Part shown: in pieces, positions 9,724 through 48,902 of the stretch
Layout of the letters: every line of letters starts with the position of its first letter
How positions within the stretch are numbered: position 1 is the stretch's first letter
IMG/VR virus record: IMGVR_UViG_3300022843_000001
Location: 64,001 to 128,000 of that record
Direction: 5' to 3' (one strand)
From: a virus
DNA: 64,000 nt
Notes under the pieces: generated by a model
What the model was told of the DNA's origin: nothing
Databases searched by the model: none
What the model saw: the letters and a program-made list of their open reading frames with translations, nothing else
Made by a program: the position numbers and the translations under genes

Positions 9724-10863
9724 TTACCCTATTACAAGTTCGTCATCTTCAAGCAATTCTTTCGCCATAACATATCCACGATTTTTTGTAAATATTTTAT
9801 GATCTGGAGTACATTTAATAGATTTTCCAGTTTCATCATCCGTGATTTTCATAATAGTAGCGTTAGGGTTTGTTTCCGCACCATCAGTAATTGTTTCCCA
9901 ATTGCCCAATTTATTCTCAACATCATACGACCAGATTTTCCAATCATCGAGATTATTGTTATAATGATTTTCAATGAAATGTTGCAAGGTACAAGATTTA
10001 ACACCAGAAACATCTCCTTTAACTGTTATAATAGTATCTCCAGTCATACATAAATTTGATGCATATACTTGCAGACCGCGATCCTTGTACATTGCTGGGC
10101 TTTGTCTGTTTACTTTATCAACAAAGAAGAAATATCCCTTACCTGTCAACATTTTAATCTTCAATGCTTTCTGATATCGGGCAACTGCATCTTCCTCACC
10201 TTTGTCTAAACGTTCGATAAAATCGTCACTTATATTCCAACCAACATTCACATCGTCAGGCATTGTTTCTACGTGCTGACACATCTCCCAAAAATCACCG
10301 CTTTCGATAGGAATATATCCTGCCCATGAACCCCGTCTAGTACTTCCTTGAGAAACGTCTCGAGACATCTGCACAAAGTCCTTGAATACAGGTACAACAC
10401 CACTTGCGGCGCCACCACCTTTGATATGCGTACCTCGTTCACGAATAGCGCCAAGATACGAACTTGTACCAAAACCGTTCTTTGAAAGGAGAGCACCTTC
10501 TTTCTGGGCTTCATAGAAATTATACACCGAATCACCAACGTAACTTCCAGAACACGATACAGGCATACCACGAGTCGTTCCCATATTTGCCATTACTGGT
10601 GTACTTGGAGCAAGAAAACCATTCCACATCAAATCGAAGAATTTAGTATTCCATTCTTCGCTCGATTCGCCCATGTGCTTCGAGGCGGTTTTTGCGATAC
10701 GTTCAAACGTCGACCGAACATCCGGTTCAGATTCCGTTTGATATTTTTCCTTAAACATTTGCCACCCAGGAGTGGTGTAGTAATCGGGAATTCTGCCAGA
10801 CGCCTGTAACTTCTTACGTTCCCTGCCCAGCTCTTTATAAATTGATACGTGTTCTTCTACCAT
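9724..10863 (-). CDS. nrdA: Ribonucleotide reductase alpha, N-terminal half, ending in a 108-aa IntN
   Basis: PSTPV, GMPVSC, SQGSTRRG, ASNL followed by CMTGDT. Start refined to MVEEH (TAATG overlap with nrdB); no ATP-cone visible. Confidence 0.92.
   Translation of the reverse strand: MVEEHVSIYKELGRERKKLQASGRIPDYYTTPGWQMFKEKYQTESEPDVRSTFERIAKTASKHMGESSEEWNTKFFDLMWNGFLAPSTPVMANMGTTRGMPVSCSGSYVGDSVYNFYEAQKEGALLSKNGFGTSSYLGAIRERGTHIKGGGAASGVVPVFKDFVQMSRDVSQGSTRRGSWAGYIPIESGDFWEMCQHVETMPDDVNVGWNISDDFIERLDKGEEDAVARYQKALKIKMLTGKGYFFFVDKVNRQSPAMYKDRGLQVYASNLCMTGDTIITVKGDVSGVKSCTLQHFIENHYNNNLDDWKIWSYDVENKLGNWETITDGAETNPNATIMKITDDETGKSIKCTPDHKIFTKNRGYVMAKELLEDDELVIG
9727..10050 (-). mobile_element. 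Split intein, N-fragment (IntN)
   Basis: Cys1 block A (CMTGDTII), block B (CTPDHKIFT), acidic end AKELLEDDELVIG then stop. Confidence 0.92.
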
Positions 10864-11864
10864 TATACTTGTCCCCATATGAAGTTAGTTTCTTTCCAGT
10901 CTCTGTTATATTCTGATCCAGTTGATATAAAGAAGTCATGAAGCTTTGATGAATTGATATTACGATAAAACCATTTCTCTATAGGATTGTATGTAGGTTT
11001 ATATAGCTTTTGATAACCAAGTTGTTCAAGACACAAATCAATTCTTGACTGTACGAACATGTCTAGCTGATGTTCTGTAATGCCACGAATGTTTCCTTTC
11101 TCAAAAATCATCTTGATAATTTCTTTTTCATGCTCGTAAGTTTTTGTAGCTACCTTAATAATATCCTTCTCTAAAGTTTCAAGTTCTTTCTTGGTTAAAT
11201 TGGCTTCTCTCATTAAGGTCTTGAACAACCAAGCATCTGCCATTGCGTGTAGATTTTCATCCTTAACTGAGAAGTTAATACCAGCAATTAGGTTTGTCAG
11301 TTTGTTTTTGCCTTCGGCTTGAAAGTGTTTTAGAAAGGCGAAGTTTGCATATAACACAGCACCTTCAACAAAGGAAAACGCGCCAAGACTTCTTAACAAA
11401 TCCATGTTGTTGTCACTTGGTGACAACAACACATCTCCAATCCACGATATACGATCACTCAATACTTTGTTTTCTTTGTAAGAGTTGTAAAATTCGTTGG
11501 TTGCAAGACCAAGAATTTCGTTTATCTTTGAATAGAAAGGTGCATGAACATTTATTTCCACATAGGCGAACATATTTGCCATTCGCTGAATGTCTGGCCG
11601 AGGAAATGATTTTGCAACACGAGCTGACCAATATTCATTGCCAACATTTAGTTCATATTCTGTGAACAGTTGTAGTACAGTTGTAACGCCGTGTAGTTCT
11701 GCTTCGTCGAGGTTGTTCTTGAGATCATGAAGATCTTTCTCCATCGATATCTCGCGTTCTGTCCATAATATATCTTGTTGTTCTTCCGAAAATGCTATTG
11801 CTTCAGGATAGTCAAACGTATATTCGGATTTTTTGGTTCTTATTCTTGGTAATTCCTCGCTCAT
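10863..11864 (-). CDS. nrdB: Ribonucleotide reductase beta subunit
   Basis: WTEREI, EINVHAPFYS, VEGAVLY..F, KDENLH di-iron motifs. Confidence 0.92.
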   Translation of the reverse strand: MSEELPRIRTKKSEYTFDYPEAIAFSEEQQDILWTEREISMEKDLHDLKNNLDEAELHGVTTVLQLFTEYELNVGNEYWSARVAKSFPRPDIQRMANMFAYVEINVHAPFYSKINEILGLATNEFYNSYKENKVLSDRISWIGDVLLSPSDNNMDLLRSLGAFSFVEGAVLYANFAFLKHFQAEGKNKLTNLIAGINFSVKDENLHAMADAWLFKTLMREANLTKKELETLEKDIIKVATKTYEHEKEIIKMIFEKGNIRGITEHQLDMFVQSRIDLCLEQLGYQKLYKPTYNPIEKWFYRNINSSKLHDFFISTGSEYNRDWKETNFIWGQV

Positions 11865-11905: not shown

Positions 11906-11934
11906 ATTATACATCATTCAGGTGCACTTGTCAA
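11906..11934 (-). promoter_or_regulatory. Sigma70-type promoter for nrdB/nrdA
   Basis: TTGACA-17-TATAAT. Confidence 0.85.
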
Positions 11935-11957: not shown

Positions 11958-12019
11958 TTGACAAATAGTTGGTTATGTGTTATAATAACTAAGTTGTGCC
12001 GGGGCAGGTTGGTATACAC
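11958..12019 (+). promoter_or_regulatory. Plus-strand sigma70 promoter followed by a conserved G-rich 33-mer (copy A)
   Basis: TTGACA-17-TATAAT with TGn; AACTAAGTTGTGCCGGGGCAGGTTGGTATACAC matches 48506-48538 at 31/33. Confidence 0.8.
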
Positions 12020-12045
12020 AATATACTAATTTATGCTGGCAGAGT

Positions 12046-12053
12046 TATTTATA
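12046..12053 (-). promoter_or_regulatory. T4 late promoter
   Basis: TATAAATA, convergent with the plus-strand promoter at 11958. Confidence 0.6.
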
Positions 12054-12055
12054 AG

Positions 12056-12096
12056 ACTGGATTACCGAGATAGGGGGGAATCAACGGTAATCCAGT
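12056..12096. terminator. Stem-loop, possibly a bidirectional terminator
   Basis: 12-bp perfect arms ACTGGATTACCG/CGGTAATCCAGT just after the holin-like gene. Confidence 0.7.
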
Positions 12097-12102
12097 ATTT
12101 AT

Positions 12103-12627
12103 TTAACGATTCTTTGCTTCTGGCATAGCCATGGCTCTTTCACCAAACCACCACATAGTAGCTGTTGATGCGGCAAACACAGTTGAATATAAAACGTATC
12201 TTACCAATTCCACAACTTCTGTTGCATTAAAAATAACTTGTTTGTCCATTGCAATGGATGCATAATCTGTTAATGTTCCATCTAATATCATTTTCAGTTG
12301 CACGATAACAAGTCCCCATAAAGTTAAAGTCAATATAGGACGGAATAATGTCTTCGCGGCAACAACCCATTTGTAATTTGGTTGACCGTTAAGTGCCACC
12401 TCACTCTGGTGGGTAACATTCATTGCTTCCCATGATGCTAAATTTGAGTCGCTGTTCATCTTAAGTACAAGAAGATCTTTCTGAAATTCTCGTTCAGCGG
12501 CTTGTTCTATTGCCTTTGCGGCCCGTTCTTTGTTTTTTACAAAAGCGCCTAATGCAGAACCAAGTATTCCCACAATACCGCCAGAACCTACCGACAGTGC
12601 TCCTCCTATTAATGTCATCCAATCCAT
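12103..12627 (-). CDS. Holin-like membrane protein (3-TM type)
   Basis: Hydrophobic segments, FRPILTLTLW and terminal MWWFGER; start refined to MDWM (TAATG overlap). Confidence 0.6.
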   Translation of the reverse strand: MDWMTLIGGALSVGSGGIVGILGSALGAFVKNKERAAKAIEQAAEREFQKDLLVLKMNSDSNLASWEAMNVTHQSEVALNGQPNYKWVVAAKTLFRPILTLTLWGLVIVQLKMILDGTLTDYASIAMDKQVIFNATEVVELVRYVLYSTVFAASTATMWWFGERAMAMPEAKNR

Positions 12628-12785
12628 TACACAGACCACCTTTTTATAAATTCTTTAAAAGACTTCATGCGCTTTCGACGCATTATGTTCTTAGGGTTGT
12701 CAGAATACAGTCTCTGCTTCTTGGTAGGAGGCATTGATACATTGCCATCCCCTGCGTTATTAGTCGGAGCGTCTTCGGTTAACAT
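12627..12785 (-). CDS. Small late protein (52 aa, not in the ORF track)
   Basis: MLTEDAPTNNAGDGNVSMPP...MKSFKEFIKRWSV; overlaps both neighbours. Confidence 0.7.
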   Translation of the reverse strand: MLTEDAPTNNAGDGNVSMPPTKKQRLYSDNPKNIMRRKRMKSFKEFIKRWSV

Positions 12786-27923: not shown

Positions 27924-28775
27924 TTAATCAACCTTCGGTTCTTCTAGTCTGGTTAATTCCATTCCGTAGTTATCAACACCTTTTTTAATGTTAAGGCCTT
28001 CTTTCTTGATTAATCGGTTATTCTCGAAAGATCGATAGTCCACATGATGATGCCACCGGCCGTATTTTTCCACAATCTCTACAACATCTGGGTGTTGATC
28101 ATACAAAGACTTGGCAAACTTGAATCGATTGTCTTTGTCAGCGCCATAGACTTCATCGGTATTACCACCTTTCATGCTCAGAGTACCTGTTTTACCGCAA
28201 AGAAAAGCATTGAACAATATAGTACAATCCCCGTCTTTCAACACTCTAAGACTTAGATCAGTGTCCTCATTATATTTGCCGCGCCACCGGTGAACAGTAT
28301 CGTTGGCAATTAACAAACAACTGTAGACGCGAGTGTTTGCCAGATATGCTGGACGAGTAGTAGATCGCTTTGGTATAAAATAGAAATATTGCATTCCCGC
28401 AATCTTGACATTTTCATATCGATCTGTAAAATCCTCTGCGGCACGAAAAGTTGTGCCAGAAGTTACACGGACTCGTTTGTTCTTGTTGAATCGATAAAAA
28501 CATTTAATGTTGTCGTCAAGAATCCAGTGGCGTTCATGGCCTTCAGATATACTGTGATCCCAAACCCAATTTCTAGCAGGTATACTTCCTTGCCCTAGAT
28601 TGCTGAACGGCAACACCAATATTTTAGCAGGGTCAATAACCGCAGCATATTCATCATACTCCTGAGGCTCGATTACAATCCTGTAGGGAACCTTCATCAG
28701 TTCCAAAGCATCTGAAGTCTGGCGAGATTCCCACCGACCCTTCGATATAATATAGACAGGATATTTCGGGTTCAT
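27924..28775 (-). CDS. TAGT/GREB1-like GT-A glycosyltransferase
   Basis: YPVYIISKGR, VIEPQEYDEY, GSIPARNWVW, WILDDNI (DxD-like), YSCLLI, YNEDTDLSL, GGNT. Confidence 0.8.
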   Translation of the reverse strand: MNPKYPVYIISKGRWESRQTSDALELMKVPYRIVIEPQEYDEYAAVIDPAKILVLPFSNLGQGSIPARNWVWDHSISEGHERHWILDDNIKCFYRFNKNKRVRVTSGTTFRAAEDFTDRYENVKIAGMQYFYFIPKRSTTRPAYLANTRVYSCLLIANDTVHRWRGKYNEDTDLSLRVLKDGDCTILFNAFLCGKTGTLSMKGGNTDEVYGADKDNRFKFAKSLYDQHPDVVEIVEKYGRWHHHVDYRSFENNRLIKKEGLNIKKGVDNYGMELTRLEEPKVD

Positions 28776-47795: not shown

Positions 47796-48392
47796 CTACC
47801 TATTGAATGTGAATAATTCCAACCCTTCTTTTTTAGCTTTTTGTGCTTTCTTCTCAGCTTTTATCTTTTTCTTGGTAAACCCATCGTCTTCCTTTACTCT
47901 TTGAATTCGTGATCTTAAATCATCGACAAAGGTATGATCAATGCTACTTAAATGGTTTAGTTCTTCATCATTTAGATACATAAAATCATCGTAACCAGAT
48001 CTTTCTATGAATTTAAATTTAATATCTTGTTGCTTCTTCTCCTTTGCTATTCGACGCAAAAATGCAAAATAGCTAATTTGAGTAAAGTACGAAAAGGCAT
48101 TTGGATTACCCGTTCGAGTTGCTGCTTCAATGTTATAGTTAACTATGGCTCGTAAGTTGTTTTCTACTGCATCCATTACCATCTCATCTCGATATGTATA
48201 TCTAATGAAGTTTGATTTGTAGGACAACCCTTCTGCTATTTTTAGAAAGCATCTGGCAATATATTCTGGAACAACTGGCACCACGGTTTCATTTTCTTTG
48301 GCCGTGTTTGCAATCTTAACATAATCACAAACTGCTTGTGAGAAGTTTTTATTGTTCACGTAATGCGGTTTATCTTTAGGTTTAATCTTCAT
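47796..48392 (-). CDS. gp55: Late transcription sigma factor
   Basis: HYVNNK.F, IAEGLSYKSNFIRYTYRDEMVMDAVEN, NAFSYFTQI...AFLRRI.KEKKQ. Confidence 0.96.
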   Translation of the reverse strand: MKIKPKDKPHYVNNKNFSQAVCDYVKIANTAKENETVVPVVPEYIARCFLKIAEGLSYKSNFIRYTYRDEMVMDAVENNLRAIVNYNIEAATRTGNPNAFSYFTQISYFAFLRRIAKEKKQQDIKFKFIERSGYDDFMYLNDEELNHLSSIDHTFVDDLRSRIQRVKEDDGFTKKKIKAEKKAQKAKKEGLELFTFNR

Positions 48393-48413: not shown

Positions 48414-48442
48414 ATTATACACCATCTTGGCGTATTTGTCAA
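48414..48442 (-). promoter_or_regulatory. Sigma70-type promoter for gp55
   Basis: TTGACA-17-TATAAT. Confidence 0.87.
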
Positions 48443-48476: not shown

Positions 48477-48538
48477 TTGACAAACTTGTGTAGTTGTGTT
48501 ATAATAACTAAGTCGTGCCGGGGCAGGTTGGTGTACAC
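48477..48538 (+). promoter_or_regulatory. Plus-strand sigma70 promoter followed by the conserved G-rich 33-mer (copy B)
   Basis: TTGACA-17-TATAAT with TGn; AACTAAGTCGTGCCGGGGCAGGTTGGTGTACAC. Confidence 0.8.
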
Positions 48539-48545
48539 TAAATAT

Positions 48546-48902
48546 CTAATGTAAGGTCAACCCTTCGGGATTGCCCTCCTGCGGTTCTTCTTCCTGCAAG
48601 GCATCCTTTAATTCCTGTCCTACGATTTTACTTAATGCATCCACGTAAAAGTTACACATTTCTGCATTAGGCTCTGCTATAACAATTCCAGTCTTCATAA
48701 TTGTCACGGTGTTGTTCTCTGCAAAGTTCATGAAGTCCTTCATATAATAAGTATACTTATCTTCTTCTGAATTGCTTTTAACTACTTCAAGACTGTCTTG
48801 CATTTCAATATAGACATCATTTTGGAATGTAACATTACCTACAATAAACTCTCCAGTGGCAAGTTTTATATACAATAATTGTACTTCATTTATAGCTCTC
48901 AT
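48546..48902 (-). CDS. Conserved hypothetical protein downstream of uvsW
   Basis: IKLATGEFIVG N-terminus; overlaps the uvsW stop. Confidence 0.6.
   Translation of the reverse strand: MRAINEVQLLYIKLATGEFIVGNVTFQNDVYIEMQDSLEVVKSNSEEDKYTYYMKDFMNFAENNTVTIMKTGIVIAEPNAEMCNFYVDALSKIVGQELKDALQEEEPQEGNPEGLTLH

Follow-up and report, generated by a model that had tools for sequence, protein, structure and literature searches.

Replication origins of phage T4 are promoter-derived R-loops that share no common motif, and one of them, oriE, is served by an early-mode promoter (PMC3016281). Several such sites are present in one genome. In the T4 record (NC_000866), the annotated oriE primer RNA is complementary to the gene 5 transcript and lies at a distance of about 2 kb from genes 4 and 2, and oriF is placed on the strand convergent with uvsW. 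A study of Rho-deficient Escherichia coli (PMC5909445) also links antisense transcription to the formation of R-loops. The oriE transcript is antisense to late genes, and oriE is further characterized by a cluster of 12-nt iterons and by the repEA and repEB genes in its transcript. The origins oriF and oriG combine MotA-type middle promoters, active before replication and directed into the origin, with an A+T-rich unwinding element; the oriF transcript heads for the 3' end of uvsW and encodes uvsY.

Precedents of other kinds are found in phage lambda and its relatives. OOP RNA of lambda is a short non-coding RNA made beside the replication region, with a host-type, constitutive promoter at its start and an intrinsic terminator at its end, and was once considered to be a primer. 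It converges on the 3' end of the adjacent gene, overlaps the end of the cII coding sequence and acts through RNase III. The nut sites of lambda and the put sites of HK022 lie just past early promoters, are identical within a genome and different between related phages, and form RNA hairpins that serve the downstream operons. PeSL cassettes are short, multi-copy early-promoter repeats with conserved cores and unrelated flanks (PMC2839356, PMC4122927); they consist of a terminator stem-loop followed by a promoter, in the sense orientation, between the open reading frames of hyperplastic regions (PMC4122927). Among marine T4-like phages, S-PM2 produces the non-coding antisense transcript CfrI, of about 225 nt, from the psbA/homing-endonuclease locus (Millard et al. 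2010, as cited in PMC2984593). For marine T4-like cyanophages, the 2010 review (PMC2984593) gives one predicted origin only, that of Syn9. In the literature that we searched, we found no experimentally mapped origin for marine T4-like phages and, within a coverage that was incomplete, no description of a backward promoter beside gp55.

The DNA analysed here, called the window, comprises 64,000 nucleotides (bases 64001-128000) of an IMG/VR virus record that is 198,785 bp long and has terminal repeats. The record is a T4-like phage of salt-lake origin, which encodes gp43 polymerase, topoisomerase II, gp41, gp46, gp55, gp23, gp20, gp18 and gp17. No phage record matched it in a near-identity search, and nrdB gave the sole match in a search for distant phage records. 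The genes of the window lie on the minus strand nearly throughout. The initial annotation had pointed out a perfect plus-strand sigma70 promoter, back to back with the nrdB promoter and followed by a G-rich 33-mer that recurs in the window at 31 of 33 identical positions. Both observations held. The plus-strand promoter scores 12/12, as does the opposing minus-strand one, and has an extended -10 element of the TGn type. The two 33-mers (the leaders of copies A and B) show no mismatch to the degenerate pattern, for which shuffled sequences predict no occurrence, and the promoter spacers preceding them do differ. The features of both sites are collected in Table 1.

Table 1. Features of the two copies of the promoter-leader module in the window and of their surroundings (window positions).
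Feature	Position	Strand	Remarks
Copy A promoter	11958..11986	+	-35 TTGACA 11958-11963, 17-bp spacer, TG 11978-11979, -10 TATAAT 11981-11986; 12/12
Copy A G-rich leader, 33 nt	11987..12019	+	conserved; predicted start about 11992-11993
Copy A predicted non-coding RNA, about 110 nt	11992..12104	+	leader predicted to pair with downstream CUGGCA, then terminator hairpin
Hairpin	12056..12096		12-bp arms 12056-12067 and 12085-12096; 17-nt loop rich in G (GGGGGG)
T4-type late promoter box TATAAATA	12046..12053	-	present in relative L005 too
Perfect early promoter of nrdB	11906..11934	-	12/12; back to back with copy A
nrdB, ribonucleotide reductase small subunit	10863..11864	-	phrog_86
178-aa gene, convergent with copy A	12103..12639	-	stop codon just past hairpin
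Copy B promoter	48477..48505	+	12/12, with TGn
Copy B leader	48506..48538	+	between p118 and gp55; ancestral position
Perfect early promoter of gp55	48414..48442	-	back to back with copy B
gp55 late sigma factor	47796..48392	-	
p118 (phrog_527)	48546..48902	-	convergent target of copy B; uvsW upstream of p118

Past the leader of copy A, the 12-bp hairpin that had been proposed to end a short RNA is real and is followed by the T-rich sequence ATTTATTT. It is a likely two-way terminator, which would serve both the 178-aa gene and the plus-strand RNA. From the predicted start at about 11992 and the end of the hairpin, the RNA of copy A is expected to measure about 108-112 nt; since 12096 is the last position of the hairpin and 12103-12105 are those of the stop codon of the 178-aa gene, RNA and gene would overlap by a few nucleotides at most. 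The predicted fold (-42.9 kcal/mol, z -5.8) comprises a 5' hairpin, in which UGCCGG of the leader pairs with CUGGCA, and then the terminator with its U tail. The convergent late promoter reported earlier is also present on the minus strand. A salt-lake relative, L005, shows the same succession of hairpin and late promoter between leader and 178-aa gene and differs from copy A by one compensatory change in each helix (5' hairpin and terminator), which is anecdotal with two distinct sequences only. The loop of the hairpin carries a second G run and is the most hybrid-favouring window of the plus strand in the genome, as calculated with approximate RNA/DNA parameters. This loop (12068-12084) contains GAUAGGGGGGAAUC, which resembles the G tract and ATATAC motif in the leaders of distant relatives, and the 108-kb relative described below has a comparable second G block some 85 nt past one of its copies (L111). 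No gene follows. A coding leader was rejected: the sole open reading frame after copy A (12033-12128, 31 aa) is devoid of a Shine-Dalgarno sequence and is not kept in the closest relative, both its start and its frame being lost in L005.

Extending the search to the whole genome revealed four copies of the promoter and leader, at 28441 (-), 52838 (+), 75996 (+, copy A) and 112515 (+, copy B). A more permissive scan, for promoters with a G-rich start behind them, returned the same four sites and no more. The copies at 28441 and 52838 lie outside the window and had been overlooked. Each copy, itself gene-less, is located between two co-directional genes and directed into the upstream one at its 3' end. 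Copy A thus faces the 178-aa gene, copy B faces p118 and behind it uvsW, and a third copy faces a 310-aa gene; the 28.4-kb copy, which sits between gp4 and gp2, points into the late gene gp4, for which a TATAAATA of its own is present. A late/early boundary, to which the module had been assigned, is a better description of copy B and of the 28.4-kb copy than of copy A. The copies other than A have no nearby terminator, so that their RNA would overlap the convergent gene, and folding of these three was no better than that of shuffled sequence. The leader belongs to the top 0.1-2% of genome windows for the stability of RNA:DNA over DNA:DNA duplexes, again with the approximate parameters. An HNH homing endonuclease gene (genome 28500-29327, minus strand; L004:1577-2404) lies between the 28.4-kb copy and gp2; in a Tara relative without this gene, the gap between gp4 and gp2 is only about 100 bp and contains the element.

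The promoters of these copies are of the same class as the sense early promoters of the phage. Perfect sigma70 promoters (12/12) number 41 in the genome, where an estimate from composition predicts about 0.4, and all of them are confined to the region 28-112.5 kb. Sense promoters account for 37 of the 41. Only three lie on the plus strand, every one belonging to a leader copy, and the promoter-rich region is bounded on its left by the fourth leader copy. Between 35 and 107 kb, the genome also holds a large, distinct family of repeated sense cassettes, which combine an early promoter, a leader, a ribosome site and an ATG around the common core AGTTGTTGACATTATACC..TGGTATAATACATGTATAAATTAATTGAAGAG..ATG (for example at genome 64840, 67072, 89632 and 104744), and bear a likeness to PeSL-type regulatory repeats. 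The minimum of the cumulative GC skew falls at 142.9 kb (142,920), where the gene blocks diverge, and at none of the copies; as the skew tracks gene strand, it is uninformative on the leader sites. The divergence of minus- and plus-strand gene blocks at about 142.0-142.9 kb, outside the window, together with the skew minimum, is a classical theta-origin signature.

A few IMG/VR and metagenome contigs, from salt-lake and Tara samples, carry the leader unchanged. One Tara phage has four copies, three of them syntenic (gp55, nrdB and gp4 sites) and one elsewhere. Presence of the motif at syntenic positions in relatives was the test that the initial annotation had set for itself, and the motif is there. 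The leader is identical at 32-33 of 33 positions between the two phages, next to proteins that are 45% (p118) and 88% (nrdB) identical. Across copies, the promoter spacers differ and the hexamers and leader are fixed. Such drift around fixed elements argues for purifying selection and not for recent copying. Conservation stops at about +37; the conserved unit consists of the promoter and some 33 nt. Copy A of the Tara phage lacks hairpin and late promoter, its leader running directly up to the stop codon of the 178-aa homologue. A nearby terminator was found only in our copy A and in the Tara copy L106.

A 108-kb contig from a further relative, estimated to be 65% complete, carries at least three identical copies of a leader of its own, different from ours, again with differing spacers; two of the three are antisense and one is sense. 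The sense copy (L110:2034-2210) directly precedes a 54-aa open reading frame encoding a CxxC...CxxC zinc ribbon. Leaders are thus alike within one genome and unlike between lineages. Copy number is four in this 199-kb genome and one in genomes of 156-175 kb.

We then examined 80 gp55 loci from more distant relatives, whose gp55 is 59-67% identical to ours; 76 of them were scored with a strict pattern. The 33-mer itself is absent from all 80. Inspection by eye shows a backward promoter beside gp55 in nearly all of the 76. The strict pattern, which demands this promoter and a G-rich tract, was found in the antisense orientation at 51 of the 76 loci, at none in the sense orientation and at none after shuffling. 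From the p118 homologue's stop codon to gp55, the antisense strand has the same layout in almost all of these loci: a promoter that has TGn and a TATAAT, a start region that is commonly AGAGT, a short segment containing pyrimidines, then a tract of about 11 nt almost without C or T. The fractions of G and C in the G tract are 0.50 and 0.10; G makes up 0.15 of the strand background. GTATAC, 21-26 nt past the -10 element, is the most conserved motif of the leader. Composition is kept across relatives, and not a seed sequence. Outside cyanophages, the gp55-side leader is G/purine-rich and ends in GTATAC; the cyanophages Syn19 and S-RIM8 have, at the same place, TTGACA-N17-TAGAAT and a common, less G-rich leader, which occurs once in Syn19. 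In C48C1 (Kyanoviridae), the cultured phage closest to ours, the only intergenic copy is the one at gp55. No terminator was found within 400 nt in 40 of the 43 gp55-side copies of relatives.

The -35 hexamer of the backward promoter is lineage-specific (TTGACA, TTTACA or TGTACA) and equal to that of the lineage's own sense gp55 promoter, indicating that one polymerase form reads both. In many of the relatives (L012-L091), TGTACA or TTTACA replaces TTGACA in the two promoters, for which a different host or a modified polymerase specificity is a possible reason. Homologues of p118 end in a conserved His codon and a stop (window 48546-48548 and homologous sites in relatives). The ATG or GTG, often ATG-TAA, that can be read antisense a few bases past gp55-side leaders is thus explained as the complement of the last His codon of the convergent gene.

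Together, these comparisons establish a family of four paralogous, gene-less putative early transcription units that point against the local genes and whose G-rich 33-nt start region is under selection. They also show, as far as sequence can, that copy B is the ancestral copy and that the family descends from a single predicted backward promoter between uvsW-p118 and gp55, as found in Kyanoviridae-type relatives.

Several known element types were searched for. Rfam 15 gave no match at gathering score over the whole window, and permissive scans around both window copies returned only hits with E>1; no tRNA or tmRNA is present. RNAalifold found no consensus pairs among 39 leaders. Pairing of AGU with ACU in the leader was rejected, its covariation equalling that of shuffled controls, and so was a Y/R covariation between the two window copies, which was lost once the remaining copies were added. 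A sigma-dependent pause at the -10-like TATAC is contradicted by the variation of key positions among the phage's own copies (TATACA, TGTACA, TATGTA, TATGTG). The leader has just three separable G tracts, against a G-quadruplex, and the GGAG/GGA motifs of relatives, which would have suited an anti-Shine-Dalgarno or CsrA sponge, are absent from this clade. No conserved open reading frame was detected downstream of the leader.

We consider it a plausible reading, although we give it somewhat less than an even chance, that the module produces an untranslated early transcript which would seed an R-loop and act as an origin primer. Host RNA polymerase would fire the backward promoters immediately after infection, the RNA would presumably remain untranslated because it is antisense, and its G-rich 5' tract would stay annealed to the C-rich template strand as an R-loop; at copy A, the two-way terminator would limit the RNA to about 110 nt. 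A replication-origin or R-loop role had been put forward from the start, and we prefer it since it covers more of the features than any rival. The module is early and carries no gene, its G-rich RNA start would favour a hybrid, and larger genomes contain several copies. The ancestral site heads the replication module, immediately beyond uvsW. The positions have parallels in T4: the oriF transcript heads for the 3' end of uvsW, and our copies lie just past uvsW and between gp4 and gp2. Like T4, this genome has several sites. The early-mode promoter of oriE and its transcript antisense to late genes are matched by the 28.4-kb copy (gp4) and by copy B (p118, uvsW). The start region of T4 uvsY (oriF; L114:2860-2890) contains CTAAGTC at nearly the same offset as CTAAGTY at window 11987-11996, maybe by chance.

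No iterons or cluster of direct repeats were found near copy A or copy B, and the transcripts have no counterpart of repEA/repEB and, unlike that of oriF, encode nothing. In contrast to oriF and oriG, an A+T-rich unwinding element is missing past the leader: the 50-bp windows there range from the 3rd to the 82nd percentile of duplex instability, and those downstream of copy B are more stable than the genome average. The canonical TTGACA at -35 also differs from a MotA-dependent middle-mode promoter with its MotA box at -30. A search of the genome found no MotA or AsiA homologue, a weak negative since control genomes gave no match either. Activity before replication, a property of the oriF and oriG promoters, is predicted here from the 12/12 sigma70 consensus with TGn. 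Further points count against an origin. In T4, neither the oriE leader nor the oriF leader is G-rich. One copy of the 108-kb relative is sense-oriented. A rightward-primed fork would meet transcription head-on. Finally, leaders that are identical within a genome and divergent between lineages suggest sequence-specific recognition, which a purely physical R-loop does not need. We advance a fuller version of the origin reading more tentatively: the module would be the replication origin of Kyanoviridae-type T4-like phages, where the G/purine 5' tract of the untranslated early transcript, bounded by GTATAC, would form a persistent hybrid and be processed into a primer, in the manner of a retroviral polypurine tract. 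A phage factor would read the lineage-specific leader, and the number of copies would rise with genome size.

The orientation of the copies lends itself to another explanation, which we regard as possible and somewhat doubtful, namely control by antisense RNA or by collision. The RNA, or head-on polymerases, would stop or destabilise read-through transcripts of the upstream unit, by which late genes (uvsW, p118 and gp4 among them) would be silenced early and the next early promoter insulated. Models are lambda OOP RNA and the classical 'anti-late RNA' of T4; the latter term gave no match in our literature search. The orientation is strict (four of four copies here, four of four in the Tara phage, two of the three on the 108-kb contig, and those beside gp55 in relatives), and the copies lie directly against the upstream gene's stop codon. 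With no terminator in the first 400 nt, as in most relatives, the RNA would extend over the gene; copy B and the 28.4-kb copy face genes having late promoters. As OOP RNA does, all four copies converge with the 3' end of a neighbouring gene. However, OOP RNA overlaps the end of cII, whereas the RNA of copy A would stop at the stop codon; OOP is single-copy, has no conserved G-rich leader and shows no sequence similarity to the module. The terminators of copy A and of Tara L106 would likewise halt the RNA short of the coding region. Moreover, antisense control leaves the G-rich leader unexplained, there is no early promoter upstream of copy B that needs insulation, and early promoters are presumably off during late-gene expression, judging from T4.

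The identity of leaders within a genome and their difference between lineages would be explained if the leader were a DNA or nascent-RNA site for a phage protein that switches the promoter class or alters the polymerase, as with lambda nut/N or HK022 put. The element does lie directly past the start site, occurs in antisense and sense contexts alike, and has in GTATAC a motif more conserved than any other. Its likeness to nut and put is nevertheless one of position and within-genome identity: the conserved boxB- or put-type hairpin is missing, the antisense copies have no downstream operon that could benefit, and no candidate factor was found. We hold this explanation to be unlikely.

The initial annotation had offered a regulatory sRNA as a second possibility. 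In a family of trans-acting sRNAs, the 5' 33 nt would be a seed common to four sRNA genes, pairing with mRNAs of the host or, less likely, of the phage, and copy A would be the complete form. Copy A could yield a terminated RNA of about 110 nt, with a 5' hairpin, a terminator with a U tail, a z score of -5.8 and one compensatory change per helix relative to L005, and several copies alike at the 5' end and unlike in their 3' parts are what a family of this type should look like. The conserved part of the claim was not supported, however. Body and terminator are missing in copy A of the Tara phage and in 40 of 43 relatives, a nearby terminator is present only in copy A and Tara L106, and the three other copies of the genome fold no better than shuffles. 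Complementary sites in the phage genome are not in excess (one 11-nt match against 0.98 expected), Rfam gives no match, and what is kept in the leader is composition and not a seed. A family of trans-acting sRNAs is improbable.

Promoter-cassette shuffling is known in T4-type phages (PMC4122927). A selfish or neutral cassette of this sort, a PeSL-like mobile repeat spread by recombination and functionless at its new sites, would fit the positions of copies away from gp55, which vary among relatives, and the large family of repeated sense cassettes in the same genome, but is very improbable given three of four positions syntenic in a relative with proteins 45-88% identical, spacers that drift against fixed hexamers and leader, and a gp55-side copy kept across the whole phage family. 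The module also differs from PeSL cassettes in that its conserved part is downstream of the promoter, unstructured, G-rich and almost always antisense.

The element thus has some features of T4 oriE/oriF, of OOP, of PeSL cassettes and of nut/put, and lacks a defining feature of each. CfrI of S-PM2, likewise a non-coding antisense transcript of a marine T4-like phage, is not tied to gp55 and is unrelated to the promoter-leader module. What is new here is a four-copy family with a strict topology, a leader layout shared across the phage family with leaders that are identical within a genome and divergent between lineages, a sense-oriented copy, and positional parallels with the annotated oriE and oriF of T4. 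The module provides a precise target of 60-100 bp in a large and ecologically important group of phages. If it is not an origin, it would be a family-wide antisense control point beside gp55, the master late regulator, which would be new for T4-like phages too.
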